Shown: in pieces, positions 38,718-46,111 of the stretch | How positions within the stretch are numbered: position 1 is the first letter of the stretch | Layout of the letters: each line of letters starts with the position of its first letter | Assembly (NCBI GenBank): GCA_963781885.1 | Contig: CAWAHW010000006.1 | Location: 96,001-160,000 of the forward strand | DNA from: an uncultured Spirochaetota bacterium | GTDB taxonomy: Bacteria; Spirochaetota; Spirochaetia; SZUA-6; Fen-1364 | Reading direction: 5' to 3' | DNA length: 64,000 bases | Notes under the pieces: model-generated | Told to the model about the DNA's origin: nothing | What the model saw: the letters and a program-made list of their open reading frames with translations, nothing else | Database searches by the model: none | Position numbers and translations under genes: made by a program

Positions 38718-40088
38718 TTACGGTGTCCTCCTCTGCAGTTGATTTTGACTTTCGGCAGACACTACCGCCGTGGGACGGAACGTGTCAAGCGCGCCGTGCA
38801 CCGCGGCAAGCGCGTCCTCCAGAAAGCCCGACAGTCCCAGGACGACGCTGTCCCACGCGCGGCGGACAAAGCCGGCGGCGTCCACGCTCGTCGTGGCAAG
38901 CAGGGGGATCCGCGCAATTTCTCCCGCGGGCGACGAGTAGACGAGCTCGCCCACCGTCTGGCCCTTGTAGACAGGGGCGACAAGCGGCGAACGGCTCAGC
39001 ATGGAGTAGGTGAGACCGGCCATTTCGTCGTCGCGCACGGTGAGCTGGAGGGGATTTGCCGGCGCCACGGCCACTCCCTTTGCCGTTCCCTTCCAGACGC
39101 GGACGGGCGGAAGCGTGGGGGTGTCCAGCGATACGGTGGTATAGGTGCGAAAGCCGTAGGAAAGAAGGGCAAGGGCGTCCTGCGCCCTTTTCATCATGCC
39201 TTCCGGCAGCGTGAGCCCCGCGACCCCGAGCAGCACGGCAACGACGCGGGTGGAGCCCTGGCGCGCGGTGATGGCCGCGGTGAAGTCCTCATCGTCCAGC
39301 CGGCCCGTCTTCAGGCCGTCCACGCCGACCCCCCACCAGACGAGGTTGTTGGCGTTGTACTGCTTTTTCACCGGGTCACGGGGCAGGCGCCCGTCCGGCA
39401 TGTTCTGCGCCAGGGGATATTCGAACTCCCGTACGGAATGCAGCTCTTCCAGCGCATCCGGGTGCAGCATGATATAGCGGCGGCAGAAGTCCGCGAACTC
39501 CCGCGCCGTGACGACATTCCCCTCCTCCGCGCCCGCGGGGTCGGTGAAATGCATCCGGGTGTAGCCCATGAAGCGCGCTTCGTCGTTCATCCACTGGACG
39601 AAGGTGCGGATGCTGCCGGCGGCATATTCCGCCAGTGCATTGGCGGCATCATTGCCCGATGCCACCGCCGCCCCTTTCATGAGCTCTTCCACGGTCACGA
39701 TCTGCCCCGGCCCCAGGTGCATGAGGGTGGAGCCCGGTACCTGGTGATCCGCCCACGCATTGGAGGACAGGTACACCACGTCCGTGCGGCGGATCTGCCT
39801 TTCGTCGAGCATGCGCAGCACGATGTGGAGCGTCATGAGCTTGGCAAGGGACGCCGGCACGAAGTCCTGGTCCGCGTTGTACTGGTAGAGGACACGGCCC
39901 GTTGCCTGGTCGATGAGGATGGCCGCGCGCGCCCAGCTCAGGAGCGGCTTGTCCGCCGGCATCCCCGTTGTCTGCACGGGCTGGGCACAGAGACTCCCGC
40001 CCATGGAGGCTGCAAAAACGAGTGCGATGAGCAGGTGACGTGCGAAACGGCGTTTCAGACCTTCCTCCCGTGTCTGAGACCTCGACAT
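38718..40088 (-). CDS. D-alanyl-D-alanine carboxypeptidase (peptidase S11)
   Basis: PASLAKLMT (SxxK), SGNDAA (SxN), GLKTG (KTG), PBP5 C-domain. Confidence 0.92.
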   Translation of the reverse strand: MSRSQTREEGLKRRFARHLLIALVFAASMGGSLCAQPVQTTGMPADKPLLSWARAAILIDQATGRVLYQYNADQDFVPASLAKLMTLHIVLRMLDERQIRRTDVVYLSSNAWADHQVPGSTLMHLGPGQIVTVEELMKGAAVASGNDAANALAEYAAGSIRTFVQWMNDEARFMGYTRMHFTDPAGAEEGNVVTAREFADFCRRYIMLHPDALEELHSVREFEYPLAQNMPDGRLPRDPVKKQYNANNLVWWGVGVDGLKTGRLDDEDFTAAITARQGSTRVVAVLLGVAGLTLPEGMMKRAQDALALLSYGFRTYTTVSLDTPTLPPVRVWKGTAKGVAVAPANPLQLTVRDDEMAGLTYSMLSRSPLVAPVYKGQTVGELVYSSPAGEIARIPLLATTSVDAAGFVRRAWDSVVLGLSGFLEDALAAVHGALDTFRPTAVVSAESQNQLQRRTP

Positions 40089-40173
40089 TCTGGATGGTGG
40101 TACGCGGCAGGTGACGAGCTGGCCGCAGTATACATCGAACGCCGCGCCTGCGGGAAGCGGCCGTCACTCATCC

Positions 40174-40292
40174 CAGCAGTCTCATTTTGGACCATCCGGA
40201 GCTGACGACCGGGCATTCTTGCCCAAAAATGGCTTATTACCATGGGACAAAATGAGAACTGCATCGTTCGGTTGCCAAACTGAAAATTGCTG
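40174..40292. mobile_element. MITE copy 1 (119 bp) with imperfect TIRs and a perfect 9-bp target-site duplication
   Basis: Ends CAGCAGTCTCATTTTGG...CCAAACTGAAAATTGCTG; flanked by CACTCATCC at 40165-40173 and 40293-40301; AT-richer than its surroundings; second copy at 42487. Confidence 0.9.
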
Positions 40293-40295
40293 CAC

Positions 40296-41786
40296 TCATC
40301 CGCAGATCCGGCGCACACTGTCCATGTCGAGGTTTTGTGCGACAACGTCCGCCACCCTGTCGATTTCCCGCTCCACGATGGCATGCAAGGGCTCACCCGT
40401 CTCCCGCGCGCGCCACCCGAGTGACGAAAGCCACGCGCGTCTGAAGGCGGGAGCGCCGAACACGCCATGCAGGTACGTGCCCCACACGCGGCCGTCCCGC
40501 GCCGCCGCGCCGTCCGGCGTGCCGTCCTCCCGCGTGAACACGGGCAGCCAGCCGGCGGCAGGGAACGTGCGCCCGCGATGTATCTCATAGCCTGACACCT
40601 CGCGACCGGCGCAGGAGCGGAGGAATCCCGGGCCATCGTTCACGGTGGCGGCCACCTGCCGCACCTCCTTCTCCTCCTCGAAGCTTGTCTCCACGGGGAG
40701 CAGGCCCAGGCCTTCCCGTGTGCCGGCGGCACCTTCACTTCCGCCCTGGTCGTTCACGGCAAGCCCCATCATCTGATAGCCGCCGCAGATGCCCACCACG
40801 ACTCCTCCCTGGTCCGCGTATGCCCGCACGGCGTGGCCGAAGCCCCGGGATGAAAGCCAGGCGAGGTCGGAGAGCGTCGCCTTGCTGCCGGGGATGATGA
40901 GCGCATCCGGCGAACCGAGGTCCCGCACCGAGGAGACGAACCGGACGTGCACACCGGCCTCCATGGCCAGAGGATCACAATCGTCGAAATTGGAAATGTG
41001 CGGCAGGTGGATCACCGCGACGTCCACGCCCCCGGGATCCGGGGAAAGCCCACCGCCGGAGATCATGGCCGCATCCTCCTGCGGCAGGCGCAGATTCTCC
41101 ATGTAGGGAATGACGCCCAGGGTGGGCACGCCGCTTGTGAGCTTCTCCAGCATCTGGAGTCCCGACGCGAGCTGGTCGGGGTCGCCACGGAACCTGTTGA
41201 TCACGAAGCCCTTGACGAGCGCCCGCTCCTCCGGTTCCAGGAGCGCGAGGGTGCCAACGAGCGCGGCAAAGACGCCGCCCCGCTCGATGCTCGCCGCGAG
41301 GAGCACCGGTGCGGAGCAGGCGCGCGCGACGCGCATGTTGACGATCTCTTCCTTCTTGAGGTTGATCTCCACCGGGCTTCCCGCCCCCTCGATAAGGAGG
41401 AGATCGTAACGCGCGCGCTGGCGCTCCAGCGCCTCTTCCACCGCTTTCCAGAGCAGCGGGCGGCATTCCGCCCAGTCATCGGGGCCGATGGATTTCCACG
41501 CCCTGCCGTTCAGCACGACCTGGGTGCGGTTCCCCGTCTCCGGCTTCAGAAGCACGGGATTCATATCGGCGTCGGGCTCCAGGCGGCACGCCTGCGCCTG
41601 CACGGCCTGGGACCTTCCGATTTCCGTTCCGTCGAGGCTCACCGCGGAGCTCAGGGAGAGATTCTGCGCCTTGAACGGCGCCACGCGGATGCCGTCGCGC
41701 GCGAAGATCCGGCAGAGCGCCGTCACGAGCAGGCTCTTGCCTGCCGCCGAGGAGGTGCCCTGGATCATGAGGACGCGTGCGGGCAT
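40296..41786 (-). CDS. cobQ: Cobyric acid synthase
   Basis: QGTSSAAGKS, PFKAQN, NPVLLKP, EGAGSPVEINL, ISNFDD, GICGGYQM, GTYLHG. Confidence 0.95.
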   Translation of the reverse strand: MPARVLMIQGTSSAAGKSLLVTALCRIFARDGIRVAPFKAQNLSLSSAVSLDGTEIGRSQAVQAQACRLEPDADMNPVLLKPETGNRTQVVLNGRAWKSIGPDDWAECRPLLWKAVEEALERQRARYDLLLIEGAGSPVEINLKKEEIVNMRVARACSAPVLLAASIERGGVFAALVGTLALLEPEERALVKGFVINRFRGDPDQLASGLQMLEKLTSGVPTLGVIPYMENLRLPQEDAAMISGGGLSPDPGGVDVAVIHLPHISNFDDCDPLAMEAGVHVRFVSSVRDLGSPDALIIPGSKATLSDLAWLSSRGFGHAVRAYADQGGVVVGICGGYQMMGLAVNDQGGSEGAAGTREGLGLLPVETSFEEEKEVRQVAATVNDGPGFLRSCAGREVSGYEIHRGRTFPAAGWLPVFTREDGTPDGAAARDGRVWGTYLHGVFGAPAFRRAWLSSLGWRARETGEPLHAIVEREIDRVADVVAQNLDMDSVRRICG

Positions 41787-41804: not shown

Positions 41805-42341
41805 CTACTGGGGCCCGGACTCGCCGCCCGAGCGGATGTTGATGCGGATCTCCTCCCCCGAATCCGGCTGCTCCCGAGGGGGAACGACGAGCCGCAGAAG
41901 CCCGTTGTGGTAGCGCGCCTCCGTGCCCGCCTGGTCGAACTTGTCGGCCGGCGCGTAGTACCGCTGCTCTTCGACGTCCTTCAGCTTCAGGCGGCGCTTG
42001 AAATACTGCACGCCCTCTTCACTCTCCAGCGCCTGCGGCGCCTTTGCCGAGAAGATGAGGTGGTCGCCGCGGAACTGCACGGTGAGGTCTTTCTCCTCGA
42101 ACCCGGCGAGGGCGATTTCCACCACGAGCTTCTTGTCGCGCGTGAGGTAGATCGTGGACGGGGGATACATGTAGGCGGGGTAGTAGTCGGGGTTGCCGAA
42201 TGGTCCCTTGCCGAAATGCTCGGCGGCCTGACGCATCCTTTCCGCGGCCTCCTGGTCGAAGTGGCCGCCGAAGTTTTCGGCGAACTTGAACGCTTCGTCC
42301 ATGATGCGGCCGAGGTCGAACGTGAATACCCGATTGGTCAT
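41805..42341 (-). CDS. Hsp20/alpha-crystallin family small heat-shock protein
   Basis: YPP..IY, EIALAGF, ARYHNGLLRLVVP. Confidence 0.88.
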   Translation of the reverse strand: MTNRVFTFDLGRIMDEAFKFAENFGGHFDQEAAERMRQAAEHFGKGPFGNPDYYPAYMYPPSTIYLTRDKKLVVEIALAGFEEKDLTVQFRGDHLIFSAKAPQALESEEGVQYFKRRLKLKDVEEQRYYAPADKFDQAGTEARYHNGLLRLVVPPREQPDSGEEIRINIRSGGESGPQ

Positions 42342-42486
42342 GGGAGTGCCTCCCTTGTGCAACGTGTCGGCTCCCCATGCGGGCGAGCCACCGGGCCCCC
42401 CATGCGGGGCGGCTCGAGGAAGCCACAGCCTCCACCCTCAATGTACTGATTGCCGGAGCGGGTGGACAAGTGAAGGAGGGCGCCGA

Positions 42487-42598
42487 CAGCAATTCTCAGT
42501 TTGGCAACCGAATGATGCAGTTCTCATTTTGTCCCCTGGTAATAAGCCATTTCTGAGCAAAAATGCTCGTCGTCAGCTCCGGATGGTCCAAAATGAGA
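42487..42598. mobile_element. MITE copy 2 (inverted relative to copy 1); its last 7 bp (44083-44089) are displaced by the IS insertion
   Basis: About 92% identical by eye to the reverse complement of 40174-40292; flanks GGGCGCCGA (42478-42486) and GGGCGCCGC (44090-44098) are an 8/9 TSD. Confidence 0.88.
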
Positions 42599-42701
42599 CA
42601 ATATGAAGTGCCCCCAGGTGGTTGCTACAACGTGGATCGGCCGTATCATGAGATTGGCGTCTCGATGCGGCACGCCACAAACAACGCACAAGGGGGCAGT
42701 C

Positions 42702-43796
42702 ATGGGTATTGTACATTACGTTGGCATGGACGTCGACAAAGAAAAGATCGCCATAGCGATCCTGAGCGGGCGCGATCAGAAGCCGAGGGCCGAGACGGTG
42801 ATTCGCAATGAAAAGAGCGTAATCCAGGCCTATTTCAAGAAGCTCCAGTCCGCGGGGGACTTGGTGACATGCTACGAGGCGGGATGTCTAGGGTATTCCC
42901 TGTATCGACAATTGACGGAACTGGGTGTGCCGTGTGCGGTGCTGGCTCCGTCTCAGATTCCACATCGTCCGGGAGATCGCATAAAGACCGATAGAAGGGA
43001 CGCTGTGATGCTTGCTCGCGCACTTCGGAGCGGGGATGTGAGTGCCGTTCATGTACCCACGCGGGAAGACGAAGCGGTTCGCGACTATCTACGAATGCTG
43101 GAGGACATGAAGTCCGATCTGCGCAAGGCCAAGCAGCGCGTGCTGGGTTTTCTTCTGCGGAGGCGGATACGTTATGAACAAGGAGCCACATGGACGCAGC
43201 CGCATCGAGCATGGTTGCAGGCTCTTGAGTTGGAGGATCCGCTGGAGCAGTTGACTCTCACCGAGTACCGCTGCCAAGTCGACGAGCTGGAGGAGAAGTG
43301 TCGGCGGATCAAGGCGGGCATCGAAGAGATCGCGGCAGGTAAAAGCTATGCCGAACCTGTAGCCAAGCTGAAGGCGTTCAAGGGCGTGGAGACGCTGATC
43401 GCCTTGTCGCTTGTTTCGGAGATCGGGGACTTTCGGCGCTTTGCAGGTGCGGATCAATTCATGGCGTTTTTGGGGTTGGTGCCCTCCGAGCGATCCAGCG
43501 GAAACAAGAGGCGCTTGGGAGGAATCACAAAGGCGGGTAATTCCCACCTGCGCAAACTTCTGGTGGAGGCCGCCTGGCAATACCGCAGCTACCATCCCAG
43601 TAGCACTCGGTTGATGAAACGACGCGAGGGTCTTTCTCCATCCTTGGTCAGCTATGCCAACCGTGCGTGCAGGCGGCTAAACAAGAAATTTCTGCGTCTG
43701 CTTTTTCGCGGCAAAGCTTCTCAGACCGTGGTGACGGCGGTGGCGCGAGAGCTCTCGGGGTTCCTGTGGGGCGCGATGGTTGATCGGGTGGCTTGA
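42702..43796 (+). CDS. IS110-family DEDD recombinase/transposase
   Basis: GMDVDK, YEAG, KTDRRDA (DEDD); EIGDFRRF, GLVPSERSSG (catalytic Ser loop), ITKAGN. Confidence 0.96.
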   Translation: MGIVHYVGMDVDKEKIAIAILSGRDQKPRAETVIRNEKSVIQAYFKKLQSAGDLVTCYEAGCLGYSLYRQLTELGVPCAVLAPSQIPHRPGDRIKTDRRDAVMLARALRSGDVSAVHVPTREDEAVRDYLRMLEDMKSDLRKAKQRVLGFLLRRRIRYEQGATWTQPHRAWLQALELEDPLEQLTLTEYRCQVDELEEKCRRIKAGIEEIAAGKSYAEPVAKLKAFKGVETLIALSLVSEIGDFRRFAGADQFMAFLGLVPSERSSGNKRRLGGITKAGNSHLRKLLVEAAWQYRSYHPSSTRLMKRREGLSPSLVSYANRACRRLNKKFLRLLFRGKASQTVVTAVARELSGFLWGAMVDRVA

Positions 43797-43812
43797 GGAG
43801 GCTGCGTATGCA

Positions 43813-44017
43813 ATCGAGGCAACCGGGACGGATGGGGAAGGTTCGTGGCGAACGGAGAATCCTCGAGCGGTTCTGCAGGCAGACTATGGTCTGATCCTGG
43901 TAATGAGACGGAGGCAAGCTCCTGACGATCACATTGGCCTGCGGTAACCAATCCACGCATATCAGACTGGTCGATCGTCGGTTATGCCCTTCTCCATCTC
44001 TTCGGGTTGGCCTCGAT
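43813..44017 (+). ncRNA. Putative bridge RNA / seekRNA of the IS1111-type element
   Basis: Closing stem 43813-43841 with 43988-44017; two internal loops carry segments matching the target (AGCGGTTCT, AATGAGA) and the donor junction (CACATTG, CATATCAGAC). Confidence 0.8.
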
Positions 44018-44058
44018 GTTCAGAAGGAGTTCTAAAGAAAAAAGGAGGCTTTTAGAGC

Positions 44059-44082
44059 TTGACGGGGGCACATCATATCAGA
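44059..44082 (+). promoter_or_regulatory. Outward-facing -35 box of a predicted circle-junction promoter
   Basis: TTGACG at 44059-64; circularisation places GACAAT 16 bp downstream. Confidence 0.55.
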
Positions 44083-44098
44083 ACTGCTGGGGCGCCGC

Positions 44099-46111
44099 TC
44101 AGACCCTGACGGGCATGACCAGAAAGGGGATGCCCAGCTGGTGGAGACGCCGCTGGACCGCGAAGGTGGTGTGGTTGAAGAGCAGCCGGGTAAGAAAAGA
44201 ATCTTCGGCGAAGACGATCTGCCCGCCGAAGAAGACGGCCGCGGGGTGTCTGCGATGGATTGTCACCGCCAGGCCGCAGATCTCGTCGGAGACGTCGGTG
44301 CCCACCGCGGAGTATCCCTCCGCGTGGAATCCCTCCGTCTCCAGGAAGCGCACGTACCGGTCCAGTCCCGCGTCCACGTGTGTCCGCAGGTCGTTGAGCC
44401 CTTCCACGCCCTTGAACCGGTCCGCGTCCACGATGCCCGCCTGGATGAATATCCAGTTGCGGAAGACATCGCCAAAGACCTTTCGGACGTTGAAGAGCGT
44501 ATGCAGGCCGGTGCCGTTGAATCCGGACACCAGGAGCACGGCGGTCTTCGCCTTCGGATCCAGGTGGGACTTCCTTTTGCGCGCATGCGCCGCCTGCACA
44601 GCCGCGACCGCGGCCGGCGCATCGCTCAGCTCCGTGACACCCGTCATGAGGTGGTCCAGGCGCGACAGCCGCCTGCCCGTCGATCTATAGAAGCGCTTCA
44701 CGACGATCGCGACCACCACGAGCGACCCGGTCACCAGAAGCGTGATCCACCCGCCCACGGCGAATTTGAGGATCACCTGGGAGACGAGGATGAAGCCCGT
44801 GAGGAGCAGGCCGAAGCCGTTGATGAGGATCTTCCGCTTCCAAGAGCGCACGGTCTTTCGCTCCTGCCACCAATGCCGGACCATGCCCGCCTGGGACAGG
44901 CAGAAGGTGATGAAGACGTTGATCGCATAGAGGACGATCAGGAAGGAAACGGCGCCCCGGCTCACGAGCATGAGCACAAGGGCGGCGCCGCCCATGAGCA
45001 CGATGCCGTTCTTGATCACCAGGCGCTCGCTGAGGAGGCTGAACTGGCTGGGCAGCCACCGGTCGATCGACATGTTGGCAAGCACGCGCGGGCCGTCGAG
45101 GAAGCCGGTCTGCGCCGCGACGAAGAGCAGCACCGCCTCGGAGATCAGCGTCACGAGCACAAAAGCGTAGCCGGGCGCGCCCCAGCCCGCGGCGATGCGC
45201 TCCATGAGCGTGGCATTCAGGGTCCTGCCCGGCACCTTCACCACGCCGAAGAGCAGGTACCCGATCATGAGCCCGGCCGCCATGAAGGCAAGGGAGACGG
45301 CCATGTAGCGCATCGTGCGCTTGGCGGTCTGCACGCGCGGCTCGCGCAGGATGGGAAGACCGTTGCTCACCGCCTCGATGCCCGTGTAGGTGCCGGCGCC
45401 CATGCTGTAGGCGCGGAGTATCAGCACGAAGACGCCGAAGGTCCCGAGCTGCGTCGCCGCGGCGCCCGTCTCCCGGACGGTGCTGTTCGCCACGGCGCCC
45501 ATCTCCGGCAGGTGCGCGCCGATTGCGTAGAGCACGGCAAATGTGTGCGTCACGAGGAAGAGCAGGAAGATGGGCACCAGCGGCGCCACCGATTCCTTGA
45601 CCCCGCGGAGATTGAGCACCGTGAGCCCGAGGACCCCCACCACGGCAAGCACGATCTTCAGCGGCTGCGCGGCAACGGGAAGAAAGCTGAAGATGGCATC
45701 GGCGCCGCTCGCAATGGAAAGGGTGATGGTGAGGACGTAGTCGATGAGGAGCGCGCAGCCGGAAATCATGCCGATTGTCGGGGAGAGCAGCTTGCTCGCC
45801 ACGAGATAGCCGCCGCCGCCCGACGGAAAGAGCTCCACGATCTGGGAATAGCTTGCGGCAATCACGAAGATCGTGACGGCCGTGGCAAGGGCGACGAATA
45901 TGCCCAGGTAGCCGTGCCGGCCCAGGGACAGGAAGGACTCCTCGGGGCCGTAGTTGGCGGATGAGAGCCCGTCCGCTCCCAGGCCCACCCAGGCGAAAAA
46001 GGCGATCAGGGAGAGCTTGTGGAAAAGGTTCGGGTCGCGGATGTCCCGCGCGCCGCCGATCACGGCGGTCCGGAGCTTGTCGATGATGCCCGTGTGTTCG
46101 TGGCTGCTCAT
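44099..46111 (-). CDS. APC-family permease (KimA/YdaO-like)
   Basis: ADGLSSANYGPEE, GGGGYLVA, DYVLT, NLRGVKES, TGIEAVSNG. Confidence 0.85.
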   Translation of the reverse strand: MSSHEHTGIIDKLRTAVIGGARDIRDPNLFHKLSLIAFFAWVGLGADGLSSANYGPEESFLSLGRHGYLGIFVALATAVTIFVIAASYSQIVELFPSGGGGYLVASKLLSPTIGMISGCALLIDYVLTITLSIASGADAIFSFLPVAAQPLKIVLAVVGVLGLTVLNLRGVKESVAPLVPIFLLFLVTHTFAVLYAIGAHLPEMGAVANSTVRETGAAATQLGTFGVFVLILRAYSMGAGTYTGIEAVSNGLPILREPRVQTAKRTMRYMAVSLAFMAAGLMIGYLLFGVVKVPGRTLNATLMERIAAGWGAPGYAFVLVTLISEAVLLFVAAQTGFLDGPRVLANMSIDRWLPSQFSLLSERLVIKNGIVLMGGAALVLMLVSRGAVSFLIVLYAINVFITFCLSQAGMVRHWWQERKTVRSWKRKILINGFGLLLTGFILVSQVILKFAVGGWITLLVTGSLVVVAIVVKRFYRSTGRRLSRLDHLMTGVTELSDAPAAVAAVQAAHARKRKSHLDPKAKTAVLLVSGFNGTGLHTLFNVRKVFGDVFRNWIFIQAGIVDADRFKGVEGLNDLRTHVDAGLDRYVRFLETEGFHAEGYSAVGTDVSDEICGLAVTIHRRHPAAVFFGGQIVFAEDSFLTRLLFNHTTFAVQRRLHQLGIPFLVMPVRV

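Follow-up and report, generated by a model that had tools for sequence, protein, structure and literature searches.

A probable bridge RNA (seekRNA) encoded in the 3' region of an IS1111-type insertion sequence from an uncultured Spirochaetota bacterium

Positions 43813-44017 of the 64,000-nucleotide stretch of Spirochaetota DNA analysed here (the window) very probably encode the bridge RNA, also called seekRNA, of an IS1111-type insertion sequence (IS) located at 42598-44081. [quoted passage not shown] The right target guide, the left target guide and the left donor guide have stood up to comparison with related elements, whereas the right donor guide has not, its match being at chance level and the variants of the DNA that it would read going uncompensated. 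The element fits the known bridge RNA and seekRNA arrangement and calls for no new mechanism or principle, RNA-guided recombination in the IS110/IS1111 family having been established since 2024 (PMC11208160, PMC11187229).

The IS is 1,484 bp long and, like all features described below, is given in window coordinates on the plus strand. It runs from ACAATATG at its left end to CATATC plus one copy of an AG core (44080-81) at its right end, limits that are taken from junctions and empty sites. The transposase gene (42702-43796; 364 aa from the ATG at 42702) is flanked by 104 nt of non-coding DNA upstream (42598-42701), as against 285 nt downstream (43797-44081), and it is inside this 3' non-coding region that the RNA segment falls. 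The protein has a DEDD/RuvC-like N-terminal domain (Pfam PF01548, DEDD_Tnp_IS110, residues 7-151, 3.1e-13) and a C-terminal Transposase_20 domain (PF02371, residues 222-300, 4.1e-22), and the NCBIfam model NF033542, "IS110 family RNA-guided transposase", matches it with 237 bits (cut-off 140). Published accounts of the IS1111 group give as its traits a C-terminal motif GL-P----S(T)G, a transposase of 330-350 aa and a longer non-coding region 3' of the gene (Siddiquee et al., 2024, PMC11187229), and define the group by subterminal inverted repeats of 7-17 bp (Durrant et al., 2024, PMC11208160). The motif is present in the translation as GLVPSERSSG, found by eye rather than with a profile. Subterminal inverted repeats lie at 42601-42615 (ATATGAAGTGCCCCC), 3 nt in from the left end, and at 44064-44078 (GGGGGCACATCATAT), 1 nt in from the right end, the former being identical to the reverse complement of the latter at 14 of 15 positions. 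Domains, inverted repeats, longer 3' region and C-terminal motif are all as expected of an IS1111 element; at 364 aa the transposase lies outside the quoted length range, which is an observed range and not a definition. Among annotated genes, the nearest copies that we found lie on Leptospira interrogans plasmids and code for IS110-family transposases, with 46.5% identity.

Upstream of the transposase gene there is a sigma-70-like promoter match at 42622-42649 (TTGCTA-16-TATCAT, 9 of 12 consensus positions), one of 2 sites in a scan in which 0.6 were expected and in which a site is a consensus match only. Just inside the right end, a -35-like CTTGAC (44058-44063) is invariant in 10 of 10 aligned relatives. 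After circularisation this hexamer would lie 17-18 nt from the left-end CAATAT, which makes the pair a putative junction promoter with a weak -10 match (3 of 6, by eye); junction promoters have been described for the IS110/IS1111 family (PMC11187229). Between the RNA and the right inverted repeat there is also an imperfect hairpin (44027-44057; AGTTCTAAAG ... CTTTTAGAGCT), which lacks a T run and whose sequence is not conserved among the aligned relatives.

The preliminary description had assumed a particular target and particular IS ends, and empty and occupied sites in the same genome prove both assumptions right. The element is found at 9 places in its own genome, as 7 full-length copies, 1 internally deleted copy and 1 copy that enters a masked block (L008), and all 9 are inserted at the same site within a palindromic repeat of about 100 bp. 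Every visible left junction (8 of 8) reads AAAATGAG joined to ACAATATG, and every visible right junction (again 8 of 8) reads CATATC joined to AGAACTGCTG, so that an occupied site has the form AAAATGAG, then ACAATATG ... CATATC, then AGAACTGCT. Empty sites in the same genome read AAAATGAGAACTGCT, and three uninterrupted copies of the repeat (L010, L013 and L014) read GGTCCAAAATGAGAACTGCTG. Together, the empty sites and the junctions fix the IS ends and show no duplication beyond the shared bases.

The target itself is the right-hand inverted repeat of the palindromic intergenic repeat, and the same repeat lies to the left of all IS copies. In the window the left part of the repeat occupies 42500-42597 and ends in the left target arm and the core (..AAAATG AG, with the core copy at 42596-97), and the right target arm, AACTGCTGG at 44082-44090, is the remainder of its right inverted repeat. 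Its left inverted repeat (~42516-42530) is the reverse complement of the target, except that it ends in ..AACTGCA. Members of this repeat family, about 100-120 bp long, have inverted ends (GCAGTTCTCATTTTG ... CAAAATGAGAACTGC) on either side of a middle that varies, and the 13-mer occurs in the genome in at least 12 left-end and at least 12 right-end copies. A further copy within the window (40175-40292, minus strand) has one A missing in the target (AATGAG-ACTGCT), and a search of the target repeat (40050-40400) against Rfam gave no match at E ≤ 1.

The core is the dinucleotide AG. A 3-nt core, AGA, had been proposed, and the relatives refute it: their left junctions read ..GAG followed by ACAATATG and their right junctions CATATCAG followed by TTCAG, so that only AG is common to both. 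The third base is shared in the window by coincidence, since the right target arm and the IS both start with A. Two sets of relatives have junctions of a different kind. In L053 and L067, both from genome G270, and in L021, the right junctions read CATATCAA in place of CATATCAG; the right target guide of G270 ends in UU, which matches AA, and its left target and left donor guides keep AG. Insertion into a target with a different core base may there have left unlike cores at the two junctions. In the metagenomic L034, the left junction reads GCATATCAG joined to ACAATATG, that is, 8 bases of the element's own right end plus core and no inverted repeat, where the left target guide would predict ..TTGAG; this may be an insertion beside a donor-like site or the remnant of a tandem copy.

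The copies in the genome bear the marks of recent activity. The 285-nt 3' region is identical in all 8 copies, and all 8 carry a C-A mismatch in a hairpin of the donor loop where 22 of 23 aligned sequences have a pair, a combination that points to a recent burst from one master copy. The occupied sites are separate insertions, since their flanks differ. One of the loci (L009/L012, contig C2, ~775886-776873) has an internal deletion corresponding approximately to window positions 42602-43198, by which the 5' half of the transposase gene has been lost together with the greater part of the left end, and the whole RNA region and the right end kept; it is a candidate non-autonomous copy.

The strings and stems that had been listed for the RNA segment are all present: AGCGGTTCT at 43866-74, a hairpin at 43875-43900, AATGAGA at 43902-08, GACGATC at 43924-30 with GATCGTC at 43973-79, CACATTG at 43930-36, CATATCAGAC at 43958-67, and the closing stem formed by 43813-41 with 43988-44017. 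The long closing stem round both loops is part of the minimum free energy (MFE) fold of 43810-44020 (-87.3 kcal/mol, z -3.30, with 0 of 200 shuffles as stable). The preliminary description had named folding and covariation across homologous IS ends as a check, and on an alignment of 23 distinct sequences (the window, 9 genome loci and 13 metagenome sequences) the fold carries compensatory changes in the closing stem, the framing stems and the inner hairpins. The 5' strand of the closing stem (43813-43841) pairs with 43988-44017, and 11 of its 13 counted pairs change on both sides among the 23 sequences. A first framing stem (43854-43864 with 43911-22; GGAG..CCTC with GAGG..CTCC) delimits the target loop, and its pair 52/135 switches between C-G (13 sequences) and G-C (9). 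The donor loop is delimited by a second (43923-43930 with 43973-80), in which pair 144/187 switches between U-A (15 sequences) and C-G (7). Within the target loop, the hairpin at 43875-43900 folds with differing stem sequences in 22 of 22 sequences that bear the stem anchor, L037 being the one among the 23 without it. Within the donor loop, a hairpin at 43940-43957 consists of UGCGG, an 8-nt loop and CCACG; its middle pair is the C-A mismatch in the own-genome copies, U-A in L050 and L054, and C-G elsewhere.

Counted over 34 pairs (closing stem, two loop-framing stems and donor-loop hairpin), 95.3% of 774 cells pair, compared with 35.5-49.7% when partners are slid, a control that flatters the structure because the structure was derived from the same sequences. 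That bias does not touch the compensatory changes at 11 of 13 pairs of the closing stem, nor the two framing-stem switches, C-G/G-C in one and U-A/C-G in the other. In all, 13 of the 34 pairs change on both sides, and the covariation score was reached by 0 of 500 shuffles. The pairing of AUUGG with UCAGU that RNAalifold proposed was kept out of the counted structure, all its columns being invariant. Rfam 15 has no match at E ≤ 1 in 42300-44300, from which it follows that no curated model fits and nothing follows about the kind of RNA; an RNA motif pattern search of viral contigs likewise had no match. Two metagenomic relatives, L037 and L039, retain the donor loop as well as the region of the left target guide and have unrelated sequence in place of the upstream framing stem and the right target guide, and may represent rearranged or degenerate RNAs.

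The right target guide, AGCGGUUCU at 43866-43874, is 9 nt long including the core. For each related element, the 9 nt after the first framing stem were compared with the 9 nt after the right end of the IS. Twenty unique insertions pair on average at 8.05 of 9 positions with their own flank; in 350 comparisons with flanks from other classes the average is 4.70. When each of the 15 guide classes is represented by a single member, 118 of 135 positions are paired, a value attained in 0 of 20,000 permutations (maximum 101); since the relatives are not independent, these and the other permutation figures overstate significance. Guide and flank pairs such as AGGAATTCT/AGAATTCCT, AACTGAACT/AGTTCAGTT and AACTCAACT/AGTTGAGTT illustrate how far both have changed together. 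The exceptions are the L015 group (L015, L027, L028 and L033, representing one insertion site on four contigs), with 5 of 9, and L021, with 6 of 9. In the window itself the match is 8 of 9, which 145 of 5,000 shuffles of the non-coding region also reached, and the remaining rG-dT wobble is fixed, as 8 identical RNA copies face a T in all 8 right arms. The claimed covariation of this guide with its target is thus borne out, as is its length; longer right target guides had already been noted in the literature (PMC11208160, PMC11208158).

The left target guide, AAUGAG at 43902-43907, equals the top strand (left arm and core) and would pair with the bottom strand. Its covariation with the left flank also holds: across 8 classes there are 28 identities at 48 non-core positions, against 15.1 expected, a result that 1 permutation in 20,000 equalled. 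Consistent matches are confined to positions -1 to -3 from the core, each of which agrees in 7 of the 8 classes. The AATGAGA match of the window was reached in 83 of 5,000 shuffles of the non-coding region. On these sequence comparisons, the target would be read as 3-4 + 2 + 7 bp, the right guide being the long one, and about 12-13 bp would be specified in all. The order that had been likened to IS1111-type RNAs, with the top-strand-pairing guide (43866-74) 5' of the bottom-strand-pairing one (43902-07), is as published.

More than 40 related elements served as evidence, at least 15 of them naturally retargeted. In G061 and G081, which hold two elements that are 87% identical, guides and flanks differ together, and deeper relatives (37-50% protein identity) display the same relation between guide and flank with still other targets. 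The host genome provides a further view of guide length. The exact 13-bp target is occupied at 8 of 12 sites and empty at 4, and the variant that differs solely in its last base (..AACTGCA) is occupied at 0 of 12 (Fisher two-sided p = 0.0013 against the exact target). The base at which the variant differs is the one opposite nucleotide 1 of the 9-nt guide, and the full length of the right target guide therefore appears to be in use; the variant sites are the left inverted repeats of the same palindromic repeats, whose avoidance may also have other causes.

The second loop contains, at 43958-43965, the left donor guide CAUAUCAG, which equals the IS right end plus core and would pair with the bottom strand. 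Its CATATCAG match was reached in 7 of 5,000 shuffles of the non-coding region. Among close relatives the right end is invariant, so covariation is impossible there; distant relatives differ in the final base of the right end, which may be C, A, G or T, and each time the RNA stretch carries the corresponding base. The RNA has ATATCAG with CATATC-AG in most elements, ATATAAG with CATATA-AG in L045, ATATGAG with CATATG-AG in L054 and L068, and ATATTAG with CATATT-AG in L052 and L056. An automatic scan finds the match over 7 nt in 23 of 26 unique combinations; L021, L053 and L067, which it misses, have the core AA at the right junction while their donor guide keeps AG. The proposed left donor guide, which follows one DNA base through all four nucleotides, is supported by this covariation. 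A longer, 10/10 match to the predicted circle junction had been claimed for this place, and that string is indeed present, with 8 nt of it supported; the last two bases are not kept (TC, GG and AG in relatives, while the junction stays AC). No handshake-like relation between the base after the left donor guide and the first right-arm base is seen (6 of 14 unique combinations, with 2,991 of 20,000 permutations as good), and so on present evidence these last two bases are not guide bases.

Identity between an internal site and the end of an element would also be predicted if the CATATCAG at 43958-65 were a second right end at the level of DNA, an alternative recombination site comparable to the extra end boxes of ISPpu9, whose duplication yields alternative circles (PMC12288879). 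We regard this as highly improbable: the internal site has no adjoining inverted repeat, GGGGGCACAT being found before the true end, all 8 of the 8 visible right junctions in the genome lie at the true end, and the site sits in a loop framed by compensating stems, in a place that mirrors that of the left target guide. As a guide, then, the stretch would read the right end of the donor.

For the donor's left end the picture is different. The candidate right donor guide, CACAUUGGCC at 43930-43939, is complementary to the core and the IS left end at 7 of 10 positions, and the 6/7 match of CACATTG on which the claim of a fourth guide had been based was reached in 1,199 of 5,000 shuffles of the non-coding region, which is chance level. 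Across relatives, conservation is limited to AUUG and one C, which would face the core G; at the position between them all four bases are found, and the DNA base that this position would face is A throughout. Two variants of the left end, ACAAAATGG in G061/G081 and ACTATATG in L044, come with no compensating change in the RNA. The right donor guide is in consequence unsupported as it was proposed, and 43930-39 may still pair with the IS left end in part. A stem AUUGG/CCAAU within the donor loop was considered as an alternative to the guide and rejected, both sides having changed in G061/G081 to an unpaired combination (AUUAU against CCAAC). By eye, the alignments of the relatives contain no RNA segment that convincingly covaries with the inner inverted repeats, and these inner parts change together at both ends of the IS.

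We tentatively propose, as a possibility that we rate well below even, that in this IS1111-type clade the donor is read asymmetrically, with the right end recognized by an RNA guide and the left end mainly by the protein through its subterminal inverted repeat, together with an RNA patch of at most 4+1 nt. If true, IS1111-type recombination would be more than IS621 with the RNA at the other end, and the sufficiency of a short, target-only seekRNA in ISEc11 would be accounted for. That same ISEc11 result, in which an 82-nt target-only seekRNA supported movement at 42% (PMC11187229), also agrees with a simpler scheme in which the RNA guides target choice only, 43923-43980 is a protein-binding scaffold, and the transposase recognizes both ends through the subterminal inverted repeats. 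The published account leaves the role of the long seekRNA form open (PMC11187229), the right donor guide is unsupported here, and inverted repeats that change together at both ends are what a single reader would lead one to expect. A pure scaffold, however, would have no need of a 7-nt stretch in the second loop that changes in step with the final right-end base, whether this is C, A, G or T, and potential donor-binding nucleotides have been reported in many IS1111 orthologues (Durrant et al., PMC11208160). We therefore hold a target-only role to be unlikely.

Taking the guide model for the target and for at least the right end of the donor, a course of transposition can be sketched. The RNA would most likely be transcribed together with the transposase gene and bind the DEDD transposase. 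As in the family at large, the IS would be excised as a circle with the junction ..CATATC-AG-ACAATATG.., and a promoter across that junction may drive the transposase gene and the RNA together. The long closing stem would carry the two stem-framed loops, the first for the target and the second for at least the donor right end, and strand exchange would take place at AG with the target ..AATG-AG-AACTGCT.

The new contribution is evidence, from covariation, that an IS1111-type RNA has a left donor guide. This gives computational support to the donor-binding loop of such RNAs, a point that is experimentally open, and marks out recognition of the left end as a well-defined question. The element also offers a clean natural data set: it is recently active, with 8 identical RNA copies and with empty and occupied targets in one genome, and it has at least 15 retargeted relatives and four right-end base variants, with a donor guide that corresponds to every one of them. 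The definition of ends, core and guide lengths is sufficient for the direct design of recombination assays.

Among known systems, ISPpu9 of Pseudomonas putida resembles the present element in recombining at an AG common to target and IS and in inserting into a palindromic intergenic repeat; according to its description, its guide RNA lies upstream of the transposase gene, and it has additional small RNAs and duplicated end boxes that are not seen here (PMC12288879). Another likeness is to the multi-copy element of G061/G081, which, like the IS110-family copies on Leptospira interrogans plasmids, has a transposase 46-47% identical to that of the window. It has the same layout, with an AG core, inverted repeats, and a 3' RNA with a UGCGG..CCGCG hairpin and an AUAUCAG donor stretch, and differs in its left end (ACAAAATGG), its target and its target guides. 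The Leptospira plasmid copies may be this same element, or IS1533.

With IS621, as described by Durrant et al. and Hiraizumi et al. (2024), the element shares a DEDD recombinase accompanied by one non-coding RNA, two stem-framed loops for target and donor, a 2-nt core within the guides, and a division of labour by which, in each loop, one guide would read the top strand on the right side of the core and its partner the bottom strand on the left side, the right donor guide of the present element being a candidate (PMC11208160, PMC11208158). The RNA lies 3' of the gene here and 5' of it in IS621, and within each loop the guides come in the opposite order. The right target guide is long here (9 nt) and the left one short (5-6 nt), whereas in IS621 the left guide has nine bases and the right one four. 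The core is AG here and CT there, both loops are here closed by one long stem, and the handshake-like relation is not detected here. The right donor guide of IS621 pairs discontiguously, as the candidate here would (PMC11208160, PMC11208158).

Bridge RNAs have been predicted in the right end of 93% of IS1111 elements, with donor-binding nucleotides in multi-loop structures (PMC11208160), and seekRNAs have been shown for four IS1111 members (Siddiquee et al., PMC11187229). The seekRNAs described for ISEc11, ISPa11 and ISKpn4 (Siddiquee et al., 2024, PMC11187229) are alike in their place in the 3' non-coding region, in the subterminal inverted repeats of the elements, in having the top-strand-pairing match 5' of the bottom-strand-pairing one with an overlap at the insertion point, and in natural retargeting. 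Their transposases are distantly related to the present one, and the likeness is drawn from their description rather than from direct comparison with a named member. Whereas the role of the long form is open in those elements, the donor-matching stretch covaries with the right end in the present clade.
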